Made by a program: the position numbers and the translations under genes. The notes beneath the pieces are model-generated. The model was not told the DNA's origin, did not search any database, and saw only the letters and a program-made list of their open reading frames with translations. Positions 31,795 through 47,241 of a DNA stretch of 64,000 bases are shown here, one piece after another; position 1 is the first letter of the stretch, and each line of letters opens with the position of its first letter. The stretch spans positions 4,221 through 68,220 of the forward strand of contig JBKHXB010000001.1 in the NCBI GenBank assembly GCA_046566245.1, given 5' to 3'. The DNA is from Alphaproteobacteria bacterium (GTDB lineage: Bacteria > Pseudomonadota > Alphaproteobacteria > Sphingomonadales > Sphingomonadaceae).

Positions 31795-33129
31795 ATGAAA
31801 CAGAAGCCACCTCTCCCGCCCCGGGAGGGGCTGGAGCGGATCAAGGTCAATGATCTGAAGCCGCACGAGCGCAACGCGCGCACTCACTCGAAGAAGCAGA
31901 TCCGGCAGATCGCCGACAGTATCGAGCGGTTCGGGTTCACCAACCCAGTCCTGGCGGACGCCAGGAACCGGATCATCGCCGGCCACGGCCGGATCGAGGC
32001 AGCGAAGCTGCTGAAGATGGCCGATGTGCCGGTGATCCGGATCGAGCGCTTCACCGAGGCCGAACGGCGGGCCTACATCATCGCGGACAACCGGCTTGCA
32101 GAGCTTGCCGGCTGGGACGACGAGCTGCTCGCTCTCGAGCTCGGGGAGATACTCAAGCTCGAGCCGGAGTTCGACACAAAGCTGATCGGGTTCGATACGG
32201 CCGAAGTCGAGAAGCTGCTGAACGCGCTCGACGGCACCGACGTTGTCGATGCCGAGGTCGAGATCGACGAAACCGGCCCGCCGGTGAGCCGCATCGGAGA
32301 CCTGTGGCAGCTCGGGCGCCATCGCCTCATCTGCGGCGATGCGCTCGATGCGAGGGTGTACCAGAGGCTGCTCGACGGAAAGCGGGCGCAGATGGTGTTC
32401 ACCGATCCGCCCTACAACGTGCCGATCGACGGCAATGTCTGCGGGCTGGGAAAGGTGAAGCACGAGGAGTTCGTGATGGCCTCGGGCGAGATGTCGGAGG
32501 CCGAGTTCACCGAGTTCCTCACAGGCTCGATGCGCAACCTCGCGGATTTCAGCGAGGACGGGTCGATCCACTTCATCTGCATGGACTGGCGGCATCTCCA
32601 GGAAATGCTCGCGGCCGGCCGAACAGCCTACGAGGAGCTCAAGAACCTCATAGTCTGGAACAAGGACAACGGGGGCATGGGCGCCTTCTACCGCTCCAAG
32701 CACGAGCTGATCTTTGCGTTCAAGAAGGGCACGGCTCCGCACATCAACAACTTCGGGCTCGGCCAGCATGGCCGCTACCGGACCAACGTGTGGGACTATG
32801 CCGGAGTGAACTCGCTCAAGGCCGAACGCGACGAGGAGCTGGCGATGCACCCGACGGTCAAACCCGTCGCGATGGTTGCCGATGCGATCCGCGACTGCTC
32901 GAAGCGCAAGGGGATCATCCTCGATGCGTTCTGCGGATCGGGAACGACGATCATCGCTGCGGAGCAGACCGGGCGGATCGGCTGCGGAATCGAGCTCGAC
33001 CCGCGCTATGTCGATGTCGCGATCAGGCGATGGCAGAAGCTGACCGACGGCCAAGCCCTGCTCGCTGGCTCTGACCTGAAGTTCGACGACGCGCACGAGC
33101 GCGACCACGGGCTCAACAAGGCTGCCTGA
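31795..33129 (+). CDS. ParB-N-terminal domain fused to amino-DNA methyltransferase
   Basis: LKPHERNARTHS/IIAGHGR ParB-like motifs; DPPY motif IV before the FCGSGTT SAM motif (beta-class order); HPTVKP. Confidence 0.92.
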   Translation: MKQKPPLPPREGLERIKVNDLKPHERNARTHSKKQIRQIADSIERFGFTNPVLADARNRIIAGHGRIEAAKLLKMADVPVIRIERFTEAERRAYIIADNRLAELAGWDDELLALELGEILKLEPEFDTKLIGFDTAEVEKLLNALDGTDVVDAEVEIDETGPPVSRIGDLWQLGRHRLICGDALDARVYQRLLDGKRAQMVFTDPPYNVPIDGNVCGLGKVKHEEFVMASGEMSEAEFTEFLTGSMRNLADFSEDGSIHFICMDWRHLQEMLAAGRTAYEELKNLIVWNKDNGGMGAFYRSKHELIFAFKKGTAPHINNFGLGQHGRYRTNVWDYAGVNSLKAERDEELAMHPTVKPVAMVADAIRDCSKRKGIILDAFCGSGTTIIAAEQTGRIGCGIELDPRYVDVAIRRWQKLTDGQALLAGSDLKFDDAHERDHGLNKAA

Positions 33130-33919: not shown

Positions 33920-34177
33920 ATGAAAAAGGCCAATCCGAAAAAGAACGCCGCCGAAGCAGCGACCTCAAAGCCCCTTATGACGAAAATGCAGCGCGTCGTT
34001 GCCCTGCTCCAGCGCGAAGGCGGCGCGACAGTCGACGAGCTCGTGAACGCCACTGGCTGGCAGCCGCATTCCGCACGTGCCGCGCTTACAGGGCTGCGCA
34101 AGAAGGGCTTCACGCTTGACCGCGTCCGCGCCGATGGCGTGACGCGCTACGTCGTCACTGCAGAACCAGCGGCGTGA
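33920..34177 (+). CDS. DUF3489-like HTH protein
   Basis: VVALLQREGGATVDELVNATGWQPHSARAALTG. Confidence 0.85.
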   Translation: MKKANPKKNAAEAATSKPLMTKMQRVVALLQREGGATVDELVNATGWQPHSARAALTGLRKKGFTLDRVRADGVTRYVVTAEPAA

Positions 34178-34583
34178 AGAAGGTCGAACGGATTGCGCAG
34201 GACGTCCGGGCGCTCGAGCGCCTGGACCTCCACGGCCTAAGGGAAGAATGGCGCCGTCGTTACGGCGGGCCCCCGAAGATGCGTTCCACTGAGCTGCTGG
34301 CGCGGCTGCTCGCCTGGCGCATCCAGGCGGATGCGTTCGGCGGACTCGATGCGACCACGATACGCCTGCTGAAGGCGGACTCACTGCCGCCGCCGAGACC
34401 TGTTCTGGAGCCGGGGATGCGGCTCGCCCGCGAATGGCAGGGGCGCCGGTATGAAGTTGACGTGCTGGACAAGGGATTTCGCTACGACGGTGCCAACTAC
34501 CGGAGCCTGTCGGAAGTCGCGCGGGCGATCACCGGCACACGCTGGAACGGACTGCGATTCTTCGGACTCCGGAAGCCGTCAAA

Positions 34584-34587
<4 letters not shown>
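34174..34587 (+). CDS. DUF2924-like protein
   Basis: LAWRIQADAFGGL, PGMRLAREWQG, SLSEVARAITGTRWNGLRFFGL. Confidence 0.88.
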
Positions 34588-36190
<1,603 letters not shown>

Positions 36191-36194
<4 letters not shown>

Positions 36195-36215
36195 CAAAAG
36201 CGTGAAAATGTCATG
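36191..36215 (+). repeat. 25-bp imperfect palindrome, copy 1
   Basis: GTGACAAAAGCGTGAAAATGTCATG; 21/25 identical to the reverse complement of 42676-42700. Confidence 0.7.
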
Positions 36216-36319
36216 AGTTTCCGAGGCGCTAATTCGCTCCAGTTTGTCTTCCTTTACCCGAGCGACTGGAAGGTCTGCACTGCCAGTTGCCGCGCGCGCA
36301 GGACTCCTGCCGAGCCGTC

Positions 36320-37021
36320 TCAGTCGTCACTCGGCAACAGCTCGTCCGGCGCATCGGCGACGGTCGAATTTTGAGTTGGCTCCCCCTCGCCGTCAAGCTC
36401 GGCTTCGGCCGACATGTCCGAAATGGCTATGCCATTTGCATCATCCACCACCTCGATCGGGCGGGGCGGCGTCTGTAGCTCGCTTATTTTTGCTAAGGCA
36501 GCAGTTTGGATTGCCTCTAAGTGCGTCGGGAAGCTTTCCGAAGCTGCACCAGACTTCTGCGCCGCAGCAGCAAAGCGTTGCTCGGCAGCAGCCTGGTTGA
36601 AATAGGCTCCTTCAGGGCCAATCAATCCCTCTTCCGTGGCCGCCAACCCAATCAGTGTGTCGAAAGCGGTGCACTGGTCTAGTTTGGACCAACTGAACTG
36701 TCGTTCGATCGAACCGAAGCAGTTCTGACTGTAGATCATCGCGCCTGGGAAACCTTCAGAATCCAGCGCGAGCCGAACATGGGCGGCCGCGCGACTGACT
36801 GAAGGTGGATTGGGTGCCGGTGGCAACACCGGAAGCGAAGGCACGACCTCACCGCTGCCAGCAACGGCTGGTTCGGACGTGGACGTTTGGATTGAATCCG
36901 TTTCAGAGTCGCAAGTAGATGCCAGAAGCACGAGGCCGATTACGCCACCGATCGCCCAAAACAGAGCGGTGCTTACATTGCTCCCGGCCGGCGCCCCGTG
37001 TGGACGGTTCATTGCTCTCAA
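36320..37021 (-). CDS. Hypothetical membrane-anchored protein
   Basis: N-terminal hydrophobic segment, two Cys (YSQNC...DQCTAFD), acidic disordered tail. Confidence 0.65.
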   Translation of the reverse strand: MRAMNRPHGAPAGSNVSTALFWAIGGVIGLVLLASTCDSETDSIQTSTSEPAVAGSGEVVPSLPVLPPAPNPPSVSRAAAHVRLALDSEGFPGAMIYSQNCFGSIERQFSWSKLDQCTAFDTLIGLAATEEGLIGPEGAYFNQAAAEQRFAAAAQKSGAASESFPTHLEAIQTAALAKISELQTPPRPIEVVDDANGIAISDMSAEAELDGEGEPTQNSTVADAPDELLPSDD

Positions 37022-37126
37022 CTCCCCCGTGAACCGAGCCTTCAGATGCTAAGCCCTTGCGCAACAAGAAAACAGCCTTGTTCGACAGCGGTGACCAACC
37101 TAATCTGCTTCTGGGGAGCAGGGGCG

Positions 37127-37384
37127 CTGAACGAGACGAACAACAGCGTTGTAGTAGACATCGGCGCGGATAGGCGCGGTCTGGCTCAGACCGCTGTTCG
37201 TTCTTTGCGTCTGTTCTATCCACAGCTCGAAGTGCGCTTGTGTCATGGCGAGGTTCACCTCCGCTCGCACTGCATGTCTAACGCCCACATTAGAGCGGCT
37301 TGGACCGCCGAGCTGCACGTAGCGCGGTTCGCGAAAGAGGATAAGCAGCAGCGAGAGCAGCTCTTTCGGGAGCTGTTCCAGTGA
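37127..37384 (+). CDS. HxsD-like small protein
   Basis: ~85 aa whose stop overlaps the hxsB start; C-terminal R..LFRELF. Start is probably non-canonical (CTG 37127 after GGAG). Confidence 0.5.
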   Translation: MNETNNSVVVDIGADRRGLAQTAVRSLRLFYPQLEVRLCHGEVHLRSHCMSNAHIRAAWTAELHVARFAKEDKQQREQLFRELFQ

Positions 37385-38793
37385 CTCTGTTTTCGCTGCG
37401 ACCACGCGCGATGCGCGATGGCAGCGTCCTTTGCACGAGCGATGCGGGGCGCTTCTTTGCAGCCCCAGCCGACTTCTTGGAACGCGTTGGCGTGGATGAG
37501 CTCACTGCCGAAGACAACGCCTTCCTGCAGCAGCAAGGCCTCATGTACGATGATGAGGCGGAGCTTGAGTACCACGCGCACCGATACGCGTTCGCGCAGC
37601 GGTTCGCGCAAGCTGCGGAGCTTGATTACCTCATCCTCGTTCCGACGCTCCGCTGCAATTTGAGCTGCAGCTATTGTCAGGTGTCGCGCGCCAACGTTGA
37701 TCGGAGCGGATTCGATTGGACCGACGACACGCTCGAGGCGGTCTACGGCATCCTCGATGGTCTCACAGCCCCGTCCGTCAAGATTGAGTTCCAAGGAGGC
37801 GAGCCGACGCTTCGCCCCGATCTCATCCAAAAGGTGATCGAACGGTGCAGCGCCGTGCGCGACGCTGAATATGTAGTCTGCACGAACCTTAGCCGAATTG
37901 ACGAAGAGGTCCTCAGCATCTTCGATCGGGAGGACGTCTATATTAGCACGTCGCTCGACGGTGATTTTGCAACCCACCAGCGCAATCGCACCCGCTCAGG
38001 TGAAGTCACGCGCGAGTTTCACGAAAACCTCGATTTCGTTGTCGAGCGTTACGGCTCGGCGAAAGTCTCGGCCCTGCCGACCATCGACCCCGCCAATCCG
38101 CCAAAACCGAAGGAGCTGATCAACAGCTTTATGAGCCGAGGCCTCAACAGCATCTATCTACGGCCGATTAACTACCAAGGATTCGCACGCAAACGGCACA
38201 AGGATGCTCGCGAGCAGGACGCAGATTGGCGGCGATATTATGAAGCTTTCATCCGCGAGCTCATAAGTCGAAATTGGACGGATCAAAGCCGTGTCGTCGA
38301 TGAAACCTATTTCACGCTTTGTCTGAATCGCATCTTCCGTGCAGGATTCGATCGACACGTTGACCTGCGGAACCCCAATCCAGTCGGCGTCGATTATGTC
38401 GTAATCGACTATGATGGGAAGGTGTATCCCACCGACGAGGCGAGGATGCTCACCCGCTCCCATGTCATCGATCTGGCGATTGGCGACGTGCGAAATGGCT
38501 GGGACACTCCCGAGCGGCAAATGCTCAATACCCATGCCACAAATCTGCTTGATCCAGCCTGCTCACGATGTGCGTATCAGCCCTATTGCGGGCGCGACGT
38601 CATCGACGACCTCTCTCGGTACGGTCGAATTGATTTGCCGCGAACCGAGACCGCTTTTTGCAAGCGACACATGCACCTGTTCGATTTCGCGTTTGAGCTT
38701 CTGTACTCGGATGATGAGCCCACTCAATACTCGCTAAGAAAATGGCTGCGCATTCCAGGCGGCAGGACGCAACTCGGAGTCCGCCACCCATGA
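37381..38793 (+). CDS. hxsB: His-Xaa-Ser system radical SAM maturase HxsB
   Basis: CNLSCSYC motif, KIEFQGGEP, ISTSLDG, YPTDEARML, SPASM-like CSRCAYQPYCG. Confidence 0.88.
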   Translation: MTLFSLRPRAMRDGSVLCTSDAGRFFAAPADFLERVGVDELTAEDNAFLQQQGLMYDDEAELEYHAHRYAFAQRFAQAAELDYLILVPTLRCNLSCSYCQVSRANVDRSGFDWTDDTLEAVYGILDGLTAPSVKIEFQGGEPTLRPDLIQKVIERCSAVRDAEYVVCTNLSRIDEEVLSIFDREDVYISTSLDGDFATHQRNRTRSGEVTREFHENLDFVVERYGSAKVSALPTIDPANPPKPKELINSFMSRGLNSIYLRPINYQGFARKRHKDAREQDADWRRYYEAFIRELISRNWTDQSRVVDETYFTLCLNRIFRAGFDRHVDLRNPNPVGVDYVVIDYDGKVYPTDEARMLTRSHVIDLAIGDVRNGWDTPERQMLNTHATNLLDPACSRCAYQPYCGRDVIDDLSRYGRIDLPRTETAFCKRHMHLFDFAFELLYSDDEPTQYSLRKWLRIPGGRTQLGVRHP

Positions 38794-39878
38794 TTCCGCT
38801 TCTTCTGCATGCACGAACCGAAGCCGAGCACCCGTTCGTAACACGCCTCACCGATCGTCAGCCCGATTCGTCGAACGGCGAAGCGCAAGGTGCCTGCTTG
38901 ATTGCTCAGGATGACGCCTGTGCGATTTTTGCGAGCGAATGGGGCCTCCTCGAGCTCAATGGCGCGGACGCACGGGATCTCTTCGGCGACGTCGTCTTAG
39001 TGGAACCTGAGGCTGGACGCGCGGAACGGCTCATCCGGGCGAGGTCCGATCATAACAGCCTGCTCGTGACGGAACGCTGTGACCAACTGTGTCAGATGTG
39101 CTCCCAGCCACCCAAGAAGACACATATCGATCGGTTTGAAGCCTTTGGGCAGGCTTGCCGCCTTGCTCCCAAAGGCGCTGTAATCGGTATCACCGGCGGG
39201 GAACCCACGCTGTACAAACATCAACTATTCGACCTTCTCGAAGGGACCCTTGAAGAGCGGCCGGATCTTGCCTTTCACGTGCTGACCAACGGCCAGCATT
39301 TTGAGGAGCGGGACGTCGAGCGCCTCCGCGGTTCTAAATATCGCGCAGTACAGTGGGGCATTCCGCTTTATGGGGCCGGGCCCGAGCTCCACGACGAAAT
39401 CGTAGGCAAGCAGGGCGCCTTCCAGCGGCTGAAGCATAGTTTCGGACAGCTGATGATGGCTGGTGCGAATGTCGAACTAAGAACCGTCGTGCTCAGTTCG
39501 AACTATTACCAGCTTCCGGACCTTGCTCGTTATGTCAGCACCAGGCTTGGCTTCATCGACGCGTGGTCTATCATGCAACTCGAAAACATCGGCTTTGCCC
39601 GCAATCGCTGGGGAACGCTGTACGTTAATCATCGCGCGGACTTCGAGCCTGTGGCATCGGCGATCAACATCTCACTTCTGAATGGAGTCAGTCCACGCCT
39701 TTTCAACTTTCCGCGCTGCACGATCCCACCAGAGTACCGCAACTTTGCTGCGGCTTCGATCTCAGATTGGAAGCGGCGCTACGCGAGGGCTTGCGATAGC
39801 TGCAGCCAGAAAGACCTATGCTCGGGATTTTTCGAGTGGCATCCGGAACGGGATATTGAGGGAGTAACCCCGTTATGA
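38790..39878 (+). CDS. hxsC: His-Xaa-Ser system radical SAM maturase HxsC
   Basis: NSLLVTERCDQLCQMCSQPP, GITGGEP, VLTNG, C-terminal CDSC...CSGFF. Confidence 0.88.
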   Translation: MIPLLLHARTEAEHPFVTRLTDRQPDSSNGEAQGACLIAQDDACAIFASEWGLLELNGADARDLFGDVVLVEPEAGRAERLIRARSDHNSLLVTERCDQLCQMCSQPPKKTHIDRFEAFGQACRLAPKGAVIGITGGEPTLYKHQLFDLLEGTLEERPDLAFHVLTNGQHFEERDVERLRGSKYRAVQWGIPLYGAGPELHDEIVGKQGAFQRLKHSFGQLMMAGANVELRTVVLSSNYYQLPDLARYVSTRLGFIDAWSIMQLENIGFARNRWGTLYVNHRADFEPVASAINISLLNGVSPRLFNFPRCTIPPEYRNFAAASISDWKRRYARACDSCSQKDLCSGFFEWHPERDIEGVTPL

Positions 39879-40492
39879 GGAAAGCACGTTTCTTCATTTC
39901 GAGCTTGGCAGCAGCTGGATTCGGAATGACCTTCCCAGTGCAGGAGGCGCTCGCCAAAGCCACCTCACCAAATGTTGGCGGCGATGATGATCCCAATGCT
40001 GGCAAGCTGTTCAAGCTGTTCAAGCAGGACCATCTATTCACTCTTGCCCAGCATCGTTCTCACAGCAGCCACCGGAGCCACAGCAGCCACCGAAGTCATA
40101 GTAGCCATCGATCGAGCTCAGGTGGCAGCTCTTATCCAGTCTACACGCCGCCTGTGTACACGCCGCCAGTTACGACACCACCTAGTACCGGCACGCCGTC
40201 CTATCCCTCTCCATCGACCAGCTCACCGTCGCTGCCTGCACCGGGCGTGGATCGCCCAAGTCCGGCGACGGAACCGCGGTCGCTGACCGGCAGAAGCGAG
40301 CTCTTCACTTCAATAGTTCGGCGCGTCCAGCTCGGGCTACTCGCCTATGGCTACTACGAAGGGACGATCGATGGCGTAGTCGGCCCCAAGATGAAGGATG
40401 CGCTTCGCCGCTTCCAGAAGGACTTTGGCCTTAATGTCACGGGCACGATTACGCCGCAGGTTCTCGATGCATTGAAGATCGTCGCCGGCTGA
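39875..40492 (+). CDS. hxsA: His-Xaa-Ser repeat protein HxsA with C-terminal peptidoglycan-binding domain
   Basis: Seven H-x-S units (HRSHSSHRSHSSHRSHSSHRS), P/S/T linker, VRRVQLGL...GYY.GTIDGVVGP...FQ...GL..TG. Confidence 0.88.
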   Translation: MRKARFFISSLAAAGFGMTFPVQEALAKATSPNVGGDDDPNAGKLFKLFKQDHLFTLAQHRSHSSHRSHSSHRSHSSHRSSSGGSSYPVYTPPVYTPPVTTPPSTGTPSYPSPSTSSPSLPAPGVDRPSPATEPRSLTGRSELFTSIVRRVQLGLLAYGYYEGTIDGVVGPKMKDALRRFQKDFGLNVTGTITPQVLDALKIVAG

Positions 40493-40580
40493 TCCCAGGC
40501 CGCTCACGTGCAGTGGCTCGGCGCCGATTATGTGGCGAGCACGCGGACGGCCCCACCGGTCAAATTACCGGCAGACGCTA

Positions 40581-40607
40581 CTCATGACAAAACTGTACTT
40601 TCGTTAT
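40581..40607 (+). repeat. Degenerate third copy of the palindrome
   Basis: CTCATGACAAAACTGTACTTTCGTTAT: intact CATGACA half-site, 12-nt spacer, 3/5 second half; lies between the convergent hxsA and OLD 3' ends. Confidence 0.4.
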
Positions 40608-40645
40608 CAGCAAGTCCTGCCGCGGCGCTCTAAGTAGATCACGTA

Positions 40646-42562
40646 CTATGCAGCCTTGGAAACCCTTCGTAGGATTTCCTCGAGTTCAAGCCGCGGATCT
40701 TCGTCCATAGCCGCCCAAAAGCTGTCGTCCGAGACGAACCTGATCAGCTTGTCTATGTCCTTGCCGGCAAAGCCGGGTGGCAAGTACGCCTCTAGAGATC
40801 CCCGCCGGAGCAGGAAAACCTGTTCAGCGGCCGCGGTCTGAATAAAACGATCTAGCTTCTTCTCTTGCTCGTCCGAGAGATCTTGCGAGAGTTGGCGCCG
40901 ACGACTTTTGATGTATTCCCAGGTTTGTTCCGCTCCGGCCCAGGATCCGGTAGAGATCGCCTTTTCAATCTCCGCTACCAAGGCAGCGGCATCCTTGCTC
41001 CTTATGTTCTCCAGAACATCTTCTTTGATCTCGCGATCATTGACCTTGAACAGCGACTGGAGCTCCGCGCTGCCGATCTGCTCAATGTAATCAAGGTCTG
41101 CCAGTATCGCATATGAAACCCGAGATGCCTGAAGCAGACTCTGATATGCACTGAACAAGCCTTTCCCACCGACACTGATGATCTCTAGGATCAACCCGGT
41201 GTCGGGCAAACCAAGCCGATTGAGAGCGGCTTCGAAGAAAATACGGTCTGACAGGCCCTCCACGAGAAGGACCTTGTCTGCGAAAAAGATGCGCTCATTG
41301 TTTTGACTGTTGACGATGTTGAAGAGGTGCTTCCCGTCCGGCAGTCCTCCCACTTCCAATCGGACGATTTGACTCTCTTGGTTCTCAGCGAAAACGCGAG
41401 AGACATATTGAATCGATTTTGGCGACACAAATGTCGGAGAATGGGTCGCCAACAGGAACTGGTTACCGGTTTTGTCAGTGAGTTCCTCGAACAGGTCGAG
41501 CAGTATGGCCTGCCATTTGGGGTGAAGATGCAGTTCGGGCTCATCGACAATGATGAGTGCATCACGAACGTTCAAAGCAAAAATCGTGAACAGATACGTA
41601 AGCAACTCTCGCTCGCCTGATGACGCGCGGCTGACAACGAAGCTCGTTCCCTGCTTTGAAAGCTGTACGTCATAGGCGTTCCGGAGCGGCGCCGTTGAGA
41701 CAAGGTCCCACTCATACCCCAGCCGAGTGAGGATCTTCGTAAGCTCTTGGAGGTTTTCATCAGCCCGAAACTCTTTGGCTGCTGTCCCCGTGTCTTTTTC
41801 TAACAAAAGCCGATACCGCTGTGCGAGACGGCCAATGGCGACCTGAACAAGGGAGAATTGTGTGCGGGATATAGTGGCGTCGCTTTGTCTCTTCGATTCA
41901 AAGGCGTTGTAGCCAGCGAGCTCGATGCTCGACGAGATCGCGTTAGCGGCGCGGTTGACGGGGAGATACACCATAGGCGTCGAAAGCGCGGCCAAGTCGT
42001 ATTCTTCCCTCAGCTGACTGTCGATTTCTGCCATCTGAAGAAACTGCAGGAATTGGGTTGATTCTGGTCCTGGAGTTCCGTGCTCGACCGAGCCATCGGC
42101 CAGCCGGTATGTGAAGCGCTGGCCCGAAACGATTTGATCGACATTCCATTCGGCAGCTTCCCGGTACCGAAGGTTTACATACTTTTTGCTCGCGAGCTCC
42201 AGGATGCGCTCGGAGTCATGCTTGATGGTCAACATGCTGTCCAAATCGCGGCGCGTGACCTCGACTTCTACCTCCAAAAGCTGAGGGAGGTCAGAAGCGG
42301 CACTATGTTTCTCTAAGATGAGCTGATTCAACGCATCATTGTACCGAAACTCGTGACGGTTTGGCTCCTCAGGAGTGGGGACGTTGACCGCATACATGGA
42401 GGCAAAGAGATGCCGCCTCAGCATGATCACGATCGCGTCAAGCAGGTTTGTTTTGCCGCCACCATTCGGGCCGATAAGGATACTGACGTTACCATCTAAA
42501 TTAAGCTCGGCCCGTTGGAGGAAGCTCCGAACGTTTTCGAGTGCAACTCGCCTCAGCAGCAT
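40646..42562 (-). CDS. OLD-family ATP-dependent nuclease (ABC ATPase + TOPRIM)
   Basis: Walker A GPNGGGKT, SSGE signature, DEPELHLHP, ATHSP, TOPRIM VEGLSD and ADLD. Confidence 0.88.
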   Translation of the reverse strand: MLLRRVALENVRSFLQRAELNLDGNVSILIGPNGGGKTNLLDAIVIMLRRHLFASMYAVNVPTPEEPNRHEFRYNDALNQLILEKHSAASDLPQLLEVEVEVTRRDLDSMLTIKHDSERILELASKKYVNLRYREAAEWNVDQIVSGQRFTYRLADGSVEHGTPGPESTQFLQFLQMAEIDSQLREEYDLAALSTPMVYLPVNRAANAISSSIELAGYNAFESKRQSDATISRTQFSLVQVAIGRLAQRYRLLLEKDTGTAAKEFRADENLQELTKILTRLGYEWDLVSTAPLRNAYDVQLSKQGTSFVVSRASSGERELLTYLFTIFALNVRDALIIVDEPELHLHPKWQAILLDLFEELTDKTGNQFLLATHSPTFVSPKSIQYVSRVFAENQESQIVRLEVGGLPDGKHLFNIVNSQNNERIFFADKVLLVEGLSDRIFFEAALNRLGLPDTGLILEIISVGGKGLFSAYQSLLQASRVSYAILADLDYIEQIGSAELQSLFKVNDREIKEDVLENIRSKDAAALVAEIEKAISTGSWAGAEQTWEYIKSRRRQLSQDLSDEQEKKLDRFIQTAAAEQVFLLRRGSLEAYLPPGFAGKDIDKLIRFVSDDSFWAAMDEDPRLELEEILRRVSKAA

Positions 42563-42675
42563 CGTCAGACCTCACGCACGTGGGACACGCGGTGCTGCTC
42601 GAATTTGATGATTTTGTATAGGTGACGCTTAGTATAGGCATCTGCCCGCGTATGCCTGAGACGAGCGCTCACATT

Positions 42676-42700
42676 CATGACATTTCCGTGTTTTTGTCAC
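42676..42700 (-). repeat. 25-bp imperfect palindrome, copy 2 (inverted relative to copy 1)
   Basis: CATGACATTTCCGTGTTTTTGTCAC on the + strand. Confidence 0.7.
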
Positions 42701-42751
42701 GAGTTGATAGCGGGTCGCCGAGCAACGCTCCAGCGACTGCGATGCGTCCAA

Positions 42752-43447
42752 TTATTTCGGCTTCCGACGAACTGCAGCCTGGAGAGTCTTGAAATTAAGC
42801 GAGTACGCATCGACGACCATCTTGCTGACCGGGATGTTCAACCGCCGTGCGGCTACGCAGACCCGCGCCTGATCCTGCTCGGAAACGCGAGAACCGAGAA
42901 AGATCTTCGTGACTGTTCTAAGCTTTTGGTATCTAGCCTGTCCATTCTCCTCGATAAAAATCCGCCATTCGCGCTCGCTCGCCCAGCGCACCGTCTTGCT
43001 CGATAGGCAGAGGCGCGCGCGATCGAGAGCGCTGCTCCCATCGTTTAGAAGTACCGGCTCTTTTTCCGAATACATCATCCGCGTGATTGCGACGCTGGAA
43101 TCGAGGCCAGTAATTAGCCGCTTCAAATTATATTCGACGCACATCCCCTCGAAGAAGTCGGCATAATGCGCCCACATCGGCTCGTGATCATACGTCTCTG
43201 AAAACGAAGCGATGCCCATAGCGTTGAAGGCGCGTCGGATCTGCACTTGCCGCTTCTCATGGTTCGGGTTTTTTTGAAACCTCAGTGACAGCCGATGCTT
43301 GCCTTCCATCGGATCATTGAGTTTCGAATAGGGCGAGCAGTGAATGTAGCCCTCGACCATCGCCTTGAGCTCGCGCTCGGCTTTCTCGCCGAGCGGCCGG
43401 TAACGGTAAAGACTGGGCGGCTTTGCGTAGATGTGGATGTCGGCCAT
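42752..43447 (-). CDS. DUF2971-like protein
   Basis: LYRYR, LNDPMEG, IASFSE...MWAHYAD...GMCVEY, K...WASEREWR. Confidence 0.8.
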   Translation of the reverse strand: MADIHIYAKPPSLYRYRPLGEKAERELKAMVEGYIHCSPYSKLNDPMEGKHRLSLRFQKNPNHEKRQVQIRRAFNAMGIASFSETYDHEPMWAHYADFFEGMCVEYNLKRLITGLDSSVAITRMMYSEKEPVLLNDGSSALDRARLCLSSKTVRWASEREWRIFIEENGQARYQKLRTVTKIFLGSRVSEQDQARVCVAARRLNIPVSKMVVDAYSLNFKTLQAAVRRKPK

Positions 43448-43677: not shown

Positions 43678-44421
43678 TCATCGGCGCGGGTCTTCCTTCG
43701 CCGATCGGCTTTCGGACAGTGAGTCAAACTCGACGATGTATGGAAGCCGCCGCAGGAAGGCAGCGTCGATGTTCTGTTTGCGATTGGTAGTGAGGATGAC
43801 CGGCCCGTCATGGTCTTCCATCCGCTGCAGCAGATAGCTCACTTCAATGTTCGTGTAGTGGTCGTGGCCGTCCTTCACACCTGTACGCTTCCCGAACAGC
43901 GCATCAGCTTCATCAAACATCAGGACGGCTCCAGACGGCTCGGCTGCATCGAAGACACGCTGAAGATTTTCCTCGGTTTCACCGATGTACTTGCTGACGA
44001 CGGCGGGCGTATCGACACGGTACAGGTCGACCCCGCGGCCGGCTGCAAGGACCTGAGCCGCCATTGACTTGCCTGTGCCAGGCGGCCCGGCAAACAGCGC
44101 AGCGAGCGCTGTGTCATGCTGTCCTTCAGCGCCTCGCGCGTTTCGCTCTTCCACGTGTGATCTGCGCCTCGCGTCTTCAGCGAGCCTGCGAAGGCGCCCA
44201 ACCTGGTCGGGGGCCAGCTGAAGGTCATCCCACGTTGGAAGCGACTTCGCGTGATCCACACGAATGAGTCGCGAGTGAGCACCCCGCCGAGGCCCCCGTC
44301 CCTCTGGTCTGATCAGTGCCTTGCTGGCCAGATACGCCGCGATCCCCGCCACTGCCGCACCGAGCACCAACCGGAACTTGAAGTTCCTGTAGGGGTCGGT
44401 CCGGGTCTCGTTCGTCGCCAC
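43678..44421 (-). pseudogene. Truncated AAA+ ATPase (eCIS Afp15-like) with tail-tube-like N-terminal peptide
   Basis: GPPGTGKS, VVSKYIGETEENL, FDEADALFGKR, LLQRME, TTN...IDAAFLRR; ends right after the core and lacks the lid helices. GTG 44421 gives MATNETRTDPYRNFKFRL. Confidence 0.6.
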
Positions 44422-44559
44422 TGGCAACGTTCCTTCGATGTTGGGAAGAGGAGCTGCAATCATAGACTAACGTGTCGGCCGCTTGCACGGCCAATTCCGC
44501 CGGGACGTCCTCCACCAACAGGGGTGCGCCGTCGAGGCGTGAAGCGCGCACCAAGGGTT

Positions 44560-44574: not shown

Positions 44575-44738
44575 CGCGCTACGGATGATGACGTTTCAGG
44601 AAATCAGAAGCCGCATCCGCCGGAGCGGTCCCAGCTGCAGGCGGAGCTATACGTTTCCGGACAGGAGCTGTTCGGGAGCGGACATTCTACCGCAATCGGA
44701 TCAGGGACTTTGCCAAACCGTGCACCGGAATTTCGCGC

Positions 44739-44791
44739 CAGAGACTGAGGGTGAAAATCGGCCCTCGGCGCCCCCGATAGCCCAGTCTCTG
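44739..44791. repeat. Inverted repeat near the element end
   Basis: CAGAGACTG (44739-47) and CAGTCTCTG (44783-91); an extra CAGAGACT lies at 44849-56. Confidence 0.7.
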
Positions 44792-44874
44792 CACACGAAT
44801 TCTCCGGTCAGAAGGCGCAGAACTGCGCCACTCTTCCGCCAGCAAAAACAGAGACTTAACTCTCGAAATGTGCG

Positions 44875-44948
44875 TGGAGGCCCGAGCCGGAATCGAACCG
44901 GCGTGCAAGGATTTGCAGTCCTCTGCGTAACCACTCCGCCATCGGGCC
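44875..44948 (-). tRNA. tRNA-Cys (GCA)
   Basis: GGCCCGATGGCGGAGTGGTTACGCAGAGGACTGCAAATCCTTGCACGCCGGTTCGATTCCGGCTCGGGCCTCCA: cloverleaf, GCA anticodon, encoded CCA. Confidence 0.97.
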
Positions 44949-45133
44949 GGAGACGCGCATTTCGGGGGCTTTGCCTCTCTGGTCAAGGGGCATAGGTCCG
45001 GCATCTCAATCGGGCTGTGCCATTGGTCGATACGGGAAATTCGACAAACGGGGGCAGCTTCGCCTTGGCGACGAAAGCTGCTGCCGATAAAGCCGGCTTG
45101 CATCCCAACTGTATTAGCTGCATATAACACCAG

Positions 45134-45784
45134 ATGACGATTCACGCTCCTATTCCGGACTTCGCCGCTGCCCGCGCCGCAATGGTCGACAGCCAGCTTC
45201 GGCCCCAGGGCGTCATCTATCCGCCGGTGGTCGAGGCGATGGCGCGAGTGCCGCGCGAGACGTTCGTCGCCGAGGGATCTGAGGCCCTCGCCTATTCCGA
45301 CCGGCCCGTGGCGATCGGTGAGGGGCGGATGATGTCGCCGCCGATGGTGCTCGGCTTCCTCCTTACGGAGCTTGTCCCGGCGCCGGGCGAGCGTGCGCTC
45401 GTCGTTGGTTGCGGCACCGGCTATTCGGCAGCGGTGCTGGAAGCGATGGGCCTCAAGGTCATTGGGCTCGAGTGCTCTTCGCGGCTTGCCGCGCGCGCCC
45501 GCGCCGCGCGGATCCATGTCGTCGAGGGTCCGCTCGAGGACGGCTGGAAGAAGGGAGCGCCGTACGACCTCATCCTGATCGACGGCGCGATCGAGCATAT
45601 CCCGGACGCGATCGTCGATCAGCTGGCCGCGGATGGCCGCCTCGGAACGGCGTTGCTGGACCGCGGCGTCTGCAGGCTTGCGGTCGGGCGCAGGGCAGGC
45701 GACGGCTTCGGCATCCAGACCCTCGCTGACGCCGGCGCAGCGCCTCTCCCCGGCTTTTCCAGGCCGCGGACGTTCAGTTTTTGA
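45134..45784 (+). CDS. pcm: Protein-L-isoaspartate O-methyltransferase family
   Basis: ARAAMVDSQLRPQGV, VPRETFV, LVVGCGTGY, PYDLILIDGA. Confidence 0.88.
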   Translation: MTIHAPIPDFAAARAAMVDSQLRPQGVIYPPVVEAMARVPRETFVAEGSEALAYSDRPVAIGEGRMMSPPMVLGFLLTELVPAPGERALVVGCGTGYSAAVLEAMGLKVIGLECSSRLAARARAARIHVVEGPLEDGWKKGAPYDLILIDGAIEHIPDAIVDQLAADGRLGTALLDRGVCRLAVGRRAGDGFGIQTLADAGAAPLPGFSRPRTFSF

Positions 45785-47241
45785 AGGCGGTCGCAGACGT
45801 GTCTCGTTCGGGCCGATTCCTGATCGCGGCGATGGCGACGGCGCTGGCCGCGGGAACCGCCTCGGCGGATACGCTTCGCGAGGCCCTGGCATCCACGTAT
45901 CGCACCAATCCGACCCTGATGGCGCAGCGCGAGTCGCTGAAGGCGACCGACGCCGGAGTCGCGATCGCGCGCGCGCAGGGCCGGCCCCAGCTCAGCGCCA
46001 CGGCCGGGATCAACCGCGACCTCACCCGTTCGGGCATCCTGGCGATCGGGAGCAAAGGCACCGACCTGACGGTTGGGGCAGACCTCAGCTATCCGTTGTT
46101 CAGCGGCGGAAGCGTCCGCAATTCGATCAACGCGGCCAAGACCCGGGTCGAGGCCGGGCGGGCGCTGCTCGACGCGGTCGAGGGCGATGTCTTCACCGAG
46201 GCGGTTGCCGCCTACATGGACGTCATCCGCGACCGGGCGATCGTCGAGCTCAACCAGAACAACGTGCGGGTCCTTGACACCAACCTACAGGCGACCCGCG
46301 ACCGGTTCGAGATCGGCGACCTGACTCGGACCGACATCGCGCAGTCGGAAGCACGGCTCGAGGGCGCGCGGACCAACCTTGCTGCAGCAGAAGCCAGGCT
46401 CGCCTCCAGCATCGAAAACTACAAAAGAGTGGTGGGGACGCCGCCGGGAGAGCTGGCGCCGCCGCCGCCGCTGCCGCCGCTGCCGACATCCGCGGAAGAA
46501 GCGGTCCGGATCGCGCTCGCCAACAACCCCGACCTGGTCGCGGCGACGCGCCAGGCCGAAGCGGCCGGGTTCGACGTCCGGGTCGCGCGCGCGAGCCGGC
46601 TTCCAACGGTCTCCGCCGGGGTCAGCTCAACCTATTACAATGCGCTCGCGGGGGCCGAGAGCGGTTTCCCGTCGACCGGCACCGAGACTAGCGCGGGCCT
46701 CAACGCCCGGATCCCCCTCTACCAGGGCGGCGGCCCGTCGGCGCGAATCCGCCAGGCGCAGGCGCTCGAAGGCCAGCTTCTGGAGCAGGTCATCGCGAGC
46801 GAGCGGACGGTCGTCGCCAACACCCGCTCCGCCTTCGCGGCCTATCAGGCGGCGGAACGCGCGATCCGTTCGAGCCAGCTCGCGGTCAAGGCCAACGAGC
46901 TCGCCCTTGAAGGCACCCGTGCCGAGCAGGGAGTCGGAACGCGCAACGTGCTCGACGTCCTCAACGCGGAGCAGGAGCTCGTGAACTCTCAGGTCGCGCT
47001 CGTGACCGCGCGCCGCGACCATTATGTCGCGGGCTTCCAGCTCCTGAACGCGATGGGCCAGACGCAGGCCGAGGACCTCGGGCTCGACGGCGGCCCGCTC
47101 TACGACCCGCTCGGCAATTACCGGCGTGTCGCGGACAGCTGGAGCGACTGGGCGAGCGATCCGCGGCACGTGCCGGTTTCGACCCGCACGGTCACCCCGG
47201 CGGAAGAGCCGCAGCCGCTGCCGGTGCCGCACGACCAGTAA
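45781..47241 (+). CDS. tolC: TolC-family outer-membrane efflux protein
   Basis: Signal peptide, RFEIGDLTRTDIAQSEARL, GTRNVLDVLNAEQEL; pcm-tolC-popZ synteny. Confidence 0.92.
   Translation: MKAVADVSRSGRFLIAAMATALAAGTASADTLREALASTYRTNPTLMAQRESLKATDAGVAIARAQGRPQLSATAGINRDLTRSGILAIGSKGTDLTVGADLSYPLFSGGSVRNSINAAKTRVEAGRALLDAVEGDVFTEAVAAYMDVIRDRAIVELNQNNVRVLDTNLQATRDRFEIGDLTRTDIAQSEARLEGARTNLAAAEARLASSIENYKRVVGTPPGELAPPPPLPPLPTSAEEAVRIALANNPDLVAATRQAEAAGFDVRVARASRLPTVSAGVSSTYYNALAGAESGFPSTGTETSAGLNARIPLYQGGGPSARIRQAQALEGQLLEQVIASERTVVANTRSAFAAYQAAERAIRSSQLAVKANELALEGTRAEQGVGTRNVLDVLNAEQELVNSQVALVTARRDHYVAGFQLLNAMGQTQAEDLGLDGGPLYDPLGNYRRVADSWSDWASDPRHVPVSTRTVTPAEEPQPLPVPHDQ

Follow-up and report, generated by a model that had tools for sequence, protein, structure and literature searches.

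What is the role of a short palindromic sequence that occurs three times behind the gene of a large serine recombinase and, under the scans described below, at no other place in its genome? The three copies lie within a stretch of 64,000 nucleotides (the window) from a member of the Sphingomonadaceae (assembly GCA_046566245.1, contig JBKHXB010000001.1, positions 4,221 to 68,220 of the forward strand); the assembly comprises 2.07 Mb in 195 contigs and is 93% complete. The copies frame two units of cargo, a His-Xaa-Ser (Hxs) radical SAM system and a nuclease of the OLD family. The sequence evidence, taken together, argues that they are probably crossover sites of a serine recombinase that delimit exchangeable defence cassettes, for which excision and integration are predicted rather than inversion. 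In the following, L-numbers label comparison loci or contigs and C-numbers label contigs of the window's own genome.

Site 1 (36187–36218, + strand, alpha type) consists of the half-sites ACCCGTGACAAAAGCG and TGAAAATGTCATGAGT around a dyad centre GT, and its core, TGACAAAAGCGTGAAAATGTCA, spans positions 36192–36213. The recombinase open reading frame (ORF; 34584–36194) ends within the site, its TGA stop codon forming part of the left arm, as the preliminary description of the window had stated. Site 2 (42673–42704, + strand, beta type; half-sites ATTCATGACATTTCCG and TGTTTTTGTCACGAGT) has the core TGACATTTCCGTGTTTTTGTCA at 42678–42699, with arms inverted relative to site 1 and a dyad centre that likewise reads GT on the + strand. 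Its reverse complement matches site 1 at 21/25 positions, and a repeat search recovers the pair as 30-nt arms (36187–36216 and 42675–42704) of 83% identity; the earlier claim of an inverted copy holds. Site 3 (40580–40611, + strand, gamma type; half-sites ACTCATGACAAAACTG and TACTTTCGTTATCAGC, dyad centre GT) has a degenerate right arm and, as ACTCATGACAAAACTGTACTTTCGTTATCAGC, does not fit the short pattern TGACA-N12-TGTCA. It is located between the convergent 3' ends of hxsA and the OLD gene, and site 2 is found 116 nt upstream of the OLD start, a possible promoter position. Two of the three sites had been placed between convergent 3' ends; this is correct for site 3, and for site 1 only if a 233-aa ORF on the minus strand is real.

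Exact matches to TGACA-N12-TGTCA in the window are limited to sites 1 and 2, and with one mismatch there are three matches against 0.65 expected. The whole assembly contains exactly two copies of this pattern, both here, and none of the other TGACA/TGTCA spacers from 4 to 21 is enriched across it. Copies in other genomes give an extended consensus of about 32 bp, ACTCATGACA-WWW-N6-WWW-TGTCATGAGT, with 26 specified positions. A genome scan with this consensus, allowing up to seven mismatches, finds three places, namely site 1 (two mismatches), site 2 (two) and site 3 (four), all within 6.5 kb. The same scan of the reversed genome finds none, and the background amounts to one match in 1.33 Mb of other alphaproteobacterial DNA. 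Therefore all three copies are real and specific to this locus. The degenerate site 3, proposed in the preliminary description, agrees at 22/26 positions with the consensus, the flanks of which were derived from other genomes, and apart from sites 1 and 2 the genome has no other place within seven mismatches. A chance origin is ruled out by the genome-wide counts and the reversed controls, and binding sites of a host global regulator are ruled out by the presence of just three sites in the genome. No sigma-70-like promoter, intrinsic terminator or T-run was found overlapping the sites.

The site belongs to a larger family. The core pattern is present in 11 of 401 genomes of the same family (the reversed pattern in one), and a metagenome scan that required the core and one flank returned at least 120 stretches, in about 40% of which both 5-nt flanks are perfect, though one alone was required. 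More than 100 copies support a layout of two inverted 10-bp arms, ACTCATGACA and TGTCATGAGT, with A/T tracts around the dyad centre. Judged from these alignments, the arms, the interchangeable A/T tracts and the short variable centre are the geometry of a crossover site for a dimeric site-specific recombinase. The spacers fall into types, of which alpha (AAAGCGTGAAAA), beta (TTTCCGTGTTTT) and gamma (AAACTGTAC..) are those of window sites 1, 2 and 3, respectively, and their six central bases (GCGTGA, CCGTGT and CTGTAC) are conserved as discrete types over many contexts. The 22-nt alpha core is identical to that of the window in at least nine unrelated metagenome contexts; at least 18 distinct flank contexts were counted for the alpha core and at least ten for the beta core, with flanks that differ in every copy. 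A beta core identical or nearly identical to that of the window closes the cargo frame in L235, L208 and L137/L118 and adjoins tRNA-Cys in L190, and the gamma spacer type recurs in L109 and at the middle site of L240, a cargo junction.

The flanks of one identical site (spacer TATTGCCACAAA) are found in the combinations X-Y (L126, L222), X-W (L139, L155) and Z-Y (L150, L157, L162), a reshuffling that simple divergence of one locus cannot give. No conserved neighbour gene family is common to the 120 site loci, and no homologues of window proteins were found near the motif in the same-family genomes. The genes beside the sites elsewhere include TIR-TPR pairs, SIR2, RHS/Calx-beta operons, SNase, a PD-(D/E)XK protein and a LeoA-like GTPase, and a few of the sites adjoin ordinary metabolic genes. 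A scan of viral contigs gave a single match, the family being almost absent there, and the PLSDB plasmids gave one weak match (84%); when the 16-kb region was compared with plasmids by megablast, the match was confined to about 500 nt of the recombinase gene. A phage or plasmid element is ruled out on these grounds. A literature search by site sequence returned unrelated primers only. The site family of about 32 bp is widespread and previously undescribed.

Two observations from other genomes may be recorded here. In genome G056 two sites in direct orientation (L094:9549 and 10987) lie 1.4 kb apart around a single 329-aa ORF, a one-gene cassette whose product has no Pfam match and which has no recombinase within 10 kb. 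Homologous RHS/Calx-beta toxin operons (about 65–70% DNA identity) in L120/L172 and L129/L166 share a 97% identical alpha site upstream, the opposite side of which is occupied by a tyrosine integrase in one and by a 392-aa protein with a weak resolvase-like N-terminus in the other.

The same frame is filled by different cargo in related loci. In the window the recombinase of 536 aa is followed by Hxs and OLD, held between an alpha and an inverted beta site (6.5 kb). The frame of L235, whose large recombinase is 78% identical, contains a Type ISP restriction enzyme with an AAA_15/HNH protein (5.3 kb), and that of L208 (64% identical) contains M78-HTH, DUF3800 and one unknown protein (3.2 kb). 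L137, with a small unrelated serine recombinase, carries SIR2, HerA and SIR2 (7.7 kb). In L240 the order is recombinase, site, methylase and helicase, a gamma-like site, three genes including an SMC-like ATPase, and a third site. The window and L240 therefore each have three sites bounding two tandem units, and a single frame is present in each of L235, L208 and L137. The expectation that the motif would mark cargo junctions of related elements, with exchange of cargo, is borne out by L235, L208, L240 and L137, since the cargo differs in each; the cargo matches defence families in PADLOC and Pfam.

The boundaries of the frames are informative. Similarity between the window and L235 covers the recombinase gene and the entire alpha site and breaks off at the outer end of the right arm. 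Across the four frames the arms that face the cargo agree with each other at 13–15 of 16 positions, and neither is closer to an outer arm than to its partner; in L235 both begin with an unusual GCCC. This likeness of the cargo-side arms is the pattern expected of attL and attR around an inserted segment.

The position of the sites relative to serine recombinase genes supports a link to this class of enzyme. A PF00239 search of the window's own genome gives one match, which makes the window enzyme its only serine recombinase. When a catalytic-domain hidden Markov model was run over all site-bearing loci, recombinase genes were found only beside the site. Seven such genes, those of the window, of five clade members and of one unrelated enzyme, end at the site or up to about 150 nt before it in the same orientation, the coding strand being the A-rich one. 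In L235/L236 the gene has its stop codon inside the left arm, and the L208 ORF continues across the site as far as the stop codon TGA within TGAGT. In L240 (66% identical) the site begins 15 nt after the stop codon, in L136 (62%) 96 nt after it and in L199/L224 (60%) about 150 nt after it. The unrelated 234-aa serine recombinase of L137/L106 has its stop codon within the alpha spacer. In a tree of the recombinases the site-bearing proteins form a basal grade and the site-less ones a derived clade, with L240, which has decayed sites, nested inside; this pattern fits an old association of recombinase and site that was later lost.

The reaction that these arrangements suggest may be outlined as follows. 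The adjacent large serine recombinase would, most likely, bind and recombine the three sites. A recombinase dimer would occupy each site, reading the outer arms in the major groove and the A/T tracts in the minor groove, the latter because A or T are freely interchangeable in the tracts, and cleavage would fall at the central dinucleotide. In all three window sites this dinucleotide is GT on the + strand, and for a serine recombinase sites with GT on the same strand are direct repeats, from which deletion or integration would result and not inversion. Any pair of sites would release a circle, of 4.4 kb (Hxs), 2.1 kb (OLD) or 6.5 kb (both). After deletion, ACCCGTGACAAAAGCGTGTTTTTGTCACGAGT would remain next to the stop codon of the recombinase gene and the circle would carry ATTCATGACATTTCCGTGAAAATGTCATGAGT; the reverse reaction would load new cassettes. 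The preliminary description had allowed for acquisition or inversion of defence modules; its first alternative is kept in this form and the second is not expected.

Several observations weigh against this assignment. Only 2 of the 11 recombinase relatives found by homology have the site (L235 and L240) and 9 lack it, and the site is therefore not an obligatory partner of the recombinase clade. The proposal that this enzyme acts at the sites has in its favour the genes that end at the site and the presence of a sole serine recombinase in the genome, and has against it these nine relatives; site-less relatives likewise carry defence cargo downstream. Most copies in metagenomes and genomes have no recombinase in the flanking DNA compared, and in ten motif-bearing genomes the nearest serine recombinase is far away. 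The centres of paired alpha and beta sites can differ by one base, as in L235 (GC/GT), L208 (GC/GT) and L137 (AT/GT), and a serine recombinase should not productively recombine pairs with unequal centres. In addition, typical attachment (att) sites of large serine recombinases measure about 40–50 bp, for which 32 bp is short. Finally, from the window to L235 the left arm of the alpha site changes solely by synonymous substitutions in the last codons of the recombinase. This suggests that protein constraint outweighs site constraint on the left arm, which would imply weak constraint as a binding site.

The comparison in question aligns window positions 36180–36196 with L235:6340–6357, where Gly-Asp-Pro-stop is kept (GAC/GAT, CCG/CCA, TGA/TAA) while the left arm changes from ACCCGTGACA to ATCCATAACA. 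Among more distant recombinases (45–52% identical, L001–L080) the 32-bp site is absent after the stop codon. The first 100 nt after the stop in these loci (for example L011:11600–11700, L079, L016 and L037) mostly contain three to five copies of (T)CCCTGTT(A/C) about 20 nt apart, sometimes together with the inverse AACAGGG. These arrays may be the equivalent site array of a sister recombinase clade.

The unequal centres could be accommodated if alpha and beta were naturally heterospecific, each recombining only with its own kind on another DNA molecule, so that the frame would serve as a natural platform for cassette exchange. This variant is regarded as doubtful. If true, it would be a bacterial equivalent of engineered recombinase-mediated cassette exchange, in which whole defence operons are swapped between genomes and the frame is kept, and the 32-bp family would supply the mechanism that is missing from the reported association between serine recombinases and defence islands.

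The geometry of the site does not by itself identify the class of enzyme. Arms of 13 bp (ACTCATGACAWWW) around a 6-bp overlap fit sites of the lox, FRT or dif type equally well, and the sites could be core sites of a tyrosine recombinase supplied in trans, the serine recombinase being just a frequent neighbour. The preservation of the six central bases as types points in this direction, as identity of the overlap would demand it and a 2-bp serine crossover would not; the alpha, beta and gamma overlaps differ within one element, yet each type is conserved between elements. Integrase genes also lie 150–210 nt from the site in L172/L120 and L095, and the window's own genome encodes eight tyrosine recombinases. 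None of the eight, however, is on the 81-kb contig C1 that holds the window, and two tyrosine integrase neighbours stand against seven independent serine recombinase genes that end at the site in a fixed orientation. The free variation between A and T in the tracts also suits minor-groove reading better than base-specific recognition of arms. A tyrosine recombinase is for these reasons considered unlikely.

A second alternative dispenses with DNA exchange and regards the sites as operators, or other regulatory binding sites, of the neighbouring defence genes, with the recombinase or another factor of the element as repressor. The distance of 116 nt from site 2 to the OLD start is compatible with this. 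Read in the A-rich orientation, the sites are often followed at 116–270 nt by a gene that runs in the same direction (OLD, SIR2/HerA, SIR2, integrase, ADH), and the site of L144 occupies a divergent intergenic region between metabolic genes. Sites 1 and 3, on the other hand, are at the 3' ends of genes, no site is overlapped by a sigma-70-like promoter, and no common gene family follows the sites. An operator would also not explain why flanks are reshuffled on both sides of identical sites and why cargo is swapped exactly between them, and this role is judged to be quite unlikely.

Crossover sites of a serine recombinase also account for the frames better than transposition does. The cargo units could in principle be non-autonomous transposons, with the inner half-sites (GRAAATGTCATGAGT) serving as 15-bp terminal inverted repeats, that were inserted by a DDE transposase with a 2-bp duplication at a palindromic target, or the 32-bp unit could itself be a tiny mobile palindrome. 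The inner arms are indeed inverted repeats of each other (13–15/16), GT is present at both ends in the window, and the 32-bp unit occurs in dozens of unrelated contexts. No transposase is found in or beside any frame, though, and the presumed 2-bp duplication fits the window only, being absent in L235, L208 and L137; moreover the outer arms are as conserved as the inner ones in most copies. Such an origin is improbable. Least probable is that the sites act as single-strand hairpins, either as DNA in the manner of integron attC or as RNA (terminator, processing site or repetitive extragenic palindromic (REP)-like element): the sites can be drawn with a stem of 10 nt and a loop of 12 nt, and a second palindrome family with other arms and a similar 12-nt spacer forms arrays between small ORFs, but the predicted folding energies of −0.3 to −4.6 kcal/mol (z +1.3 to −2.2) are no better than those of shuffled sequences, there is no T-run, and arm changes are uncompensated in the window sites and in the L235 alpha site.

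The second palindrome family, CTAATGTCCGC-AATGGGTGGAAA-GCGGACATTAG, has the 12-nt spacer geometry of the 32-bp site, and its spacer resembles alpha. Ten copies lie between small ORFs in L243:17586–21331, one of which encodes an Hfx_Cass5 integron-cassette protein. In the window's own genome it is found at C9:8, C18:51, C88:118, C128:296, C135:475, C22:28219 and 29030, and C13:18399 and 23575; the location of most of these copies at contig ends indicates a multi-copy repeat. It adjoins the 32-bp site in L140, L144, L208 and L221. This family may be a sister site family or an attC/REP-like element.

The genes of the locus can now be described in order. The recombinase (34584–36194, + strand) matches the Pfam families Resolvase (1.9e-38) and Recombinase (1.1e-11), with NCBIfam matches to CcrB and XisF that are below the cut-offs. 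Directly 5' of it is a DUF2924 gene (34174–34587, + strand; Pfam PF11149, 2e-41), which is kept upstream of every recombinase relative compared. Beyond site 1, the first gene of cargo unit 1 would be the ORF of 233 aa (36320–37021, − strand), which was taken from the ORF list and has a lipoprotein-like N-terminus. It has no Pfam, NCBIfam or PADLOC match, and with a G+C content by codon position of 0.63/0.53/0.60, an ambiguous pattern, its status as a real gene is uncertain. The position of HxsD is taken by an ORF of 128 aa (36998–37384, + strand) with a coding-like pattern (0.62/0.47/0.64); no family model in Pfam, NCBIfam or PADLOC matched it, so that its identity as HxsD is unconfirmed by any model. 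The Hxs unit proper (hxsBCA, 37381–40492, + strand) is recognized by NCBIfam above the cut-offs and comprises hxsB (37381–38793; TIGR03978, 406.8 bits), hxsC (38742–39878; TIGR03977, 309.1 bits) and hxsA (39875–40492; TIGR03979, 140.3 bits), all on the + strand. Cargo unit 2 is a single gene (40646–42562, − strand) for an OLD-family ATPase/TOPRIM nuclease of 638 aa with the Pfam domains AAA_15, AAA_21 and OLD-like_TOPRIM (PADLOC 'Old', 3.1e-34). The gene calls made originally for HxsB, HxsC, HxsA and the OLD protein are all upheld by these models.

Directly outside site 2 lies a gene for a DUF2971 protein (42752–43447, − strand; Pfam PF11185), which matches the PADLOC candidate defence family PDC-S31 (6.9e-39). 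It is followed by a gene for an IetA/IteA-like AAA ATPase (43678–44463, − strand; Pfam AAA 5.9e-26, PADLOC IetA 1e-20, NCBIfam IteA below cut-off), and the two may constitute a further defence pair. The G+C content is 0.53–0.59 over 36–44 kb compared with about 0.65–0.69 to the right.

Upstream, the recombinase is part of a conserved core of about 7 kb formed by a ParB-methylase, DUF5681, the terminase large subunit, DUF3489, DUF2924 and the recombinase, with cargo that varies on both sides. The first of these genes encodes a fusion of ParB_N with an N6_N4 DNA methylase (31795–33129, + strand; Pfam PF01555, 4e-32, and PF02195) and is also present in L199, L235, L237, L239, L240 and L242–L247. 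The core was found in genomes of the Sphingomicrobium/Sphingomonas type (L235, L237, L239, L240 and L242–L248). Its upstream cargo includes RHS, type VI secretion system Tle1-like and amidase genes; downstream are Thoeris-like TIR, E1/E2-like, KAP NTPase, kinase and restriction genes. The core looks like a satellite-like family of mobile elements that acts as a defence hotspot. Literature searches for DUF2924, DUF3489 and DUF5681 found only mentions in Wolbachia and phages.

To the right of the cargo ARAGORN places a tRNA-Cys gene (44875–44948), which together with a downstream region of 160 nt spans 44712–44948 on the − strand. This region is repeated at C1:249–416, to the left of the window and 48.6 kb away, as a 169-nt direct repeat of 77% identity detected by blastn, and it may therefore be that everything to the left belongs to an island at tRNA-Cys. 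The left border put forward previously, near 28.2 kb, has to be abandoned, as there is no tRNA-derived repeat at that position and C1:249–416 is the only repeat partner. A long ORF (44687–45892, − strand) overlaps the tRNA, and its C-terminal third is consequently not protein-coding. In a related organism (70–80% protein identity; syntenic with C30, C38, C1 and C35) the same tRNA-Cys carries a mini-island of 0.7 kb (L190:5150–6020) that lacks a recombinase: 195 nt separate the tRNA from a beta site, after which come an ORF of 89 aa and a short repeat fragment.

Defence genes are known to gather in the neighbourhood of recombinase genes, and the use of serine recombinases as bait to detect them has been proposed. 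This locus offers a searchable 32-bp site with conserved subtypes. It also offers a fixed position of that site at the end of the recombinase gene, and four or five natural 'experiments' in which differing defence systems occupy the same frame. The site can serve as a sequence tag for cargo boundaries and for new defence candidates in metagenomes. Should the enzyme and its site prove active and orthogonal, they may provide a further, compact tool for recombination.

By analogy, the closest known system is the composite island of the staphylococcal cassette chromosome (SCC). In SCC and SCCmec a large serine recombinase (CcrAB or CcrC) is similarly accompanied by cassettes in a row, with short att sites as their boundaries. 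Those SCC cassettes that lack a recombinase of their own bear genes for defence against phages and are excised one at a time or jointly (PMC11470126). The window recombinase, however, is not a Ccr, its best NCBIfam score being 121 bits for CcrB against a cut-off of 900, with 68 against 700 for CcrA and 75.8 against 900 for CcrC. Its clade is alphaproteobacterial, with DUF3489 and DUF2924 invariably in front of the recombinase, and the core also holds a terminase large subunit and a ParB-methylase. The 32-bp near-perfect palindrome is unlike the Ccr att sites, and site 1 overlaps the recombinase stop codon. The putative island adjoins tRNA-Cys and not the 3' end of rlmH, and its mobility is a prediction only.

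The succession of a recombinase gene, a primary site and cassettes bounded by recurring sites is reminiscent of integrons, as are the large environmental pool of sites with unrelated flanks and the defence genes among the cargo. The term 'integron-like' used in the preliminary description is appropriate as an analogy only, since there is neither an IntI nor an attC structure. The adjacent enzyme is of the Resolvase/Recombinase type, and contig C1 has no Phage_integrase match and hence no tyrosine IntI. The sites are double-strand palindromes without R and L boxes and without GTTRRRY/RYYYAAC, they fold poorly as hairpins, and the cassettes are multi-gene and in both orientations. DNA invertases (Hin, Gin, Cin and Pin, and Mpi of Bacteroides) similarly have a recombinase gene that adjoins a segment flanked by sites with inverted arms, and the half-site layout of a specific outer block, an A/T tract and a 2-bp centre parallels hix and gix. 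The window enzyme, in contrast, has 536 aa and a Recombinase domain and is not a small protein of about 190 aa with a C-terminal HTH; NCBIfam Mpi scores only 19.8 bits. The dyad-centre dinucleotide is direct (GT on the + strand in sites 1 and 2) and not inverted, and the segment contains whole defence operons instead of alternative gene ends or a promoter.

A further parallel is a recent preprint on RADS, which links small serine recombinases statistically with defence genes and leaves the mechanism open; a search of this text for the relevant terms found no mention of recombination sites (bioRxiv 10.1101/2025.10.07.681051). L137, in which a 234-aa serine recombinase is directly followed by SIR2 and SIR2/HerA cargo, resembles these arrangements. 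The difference is that here a concrete family of sites has been mapped at the cargo boundaries.

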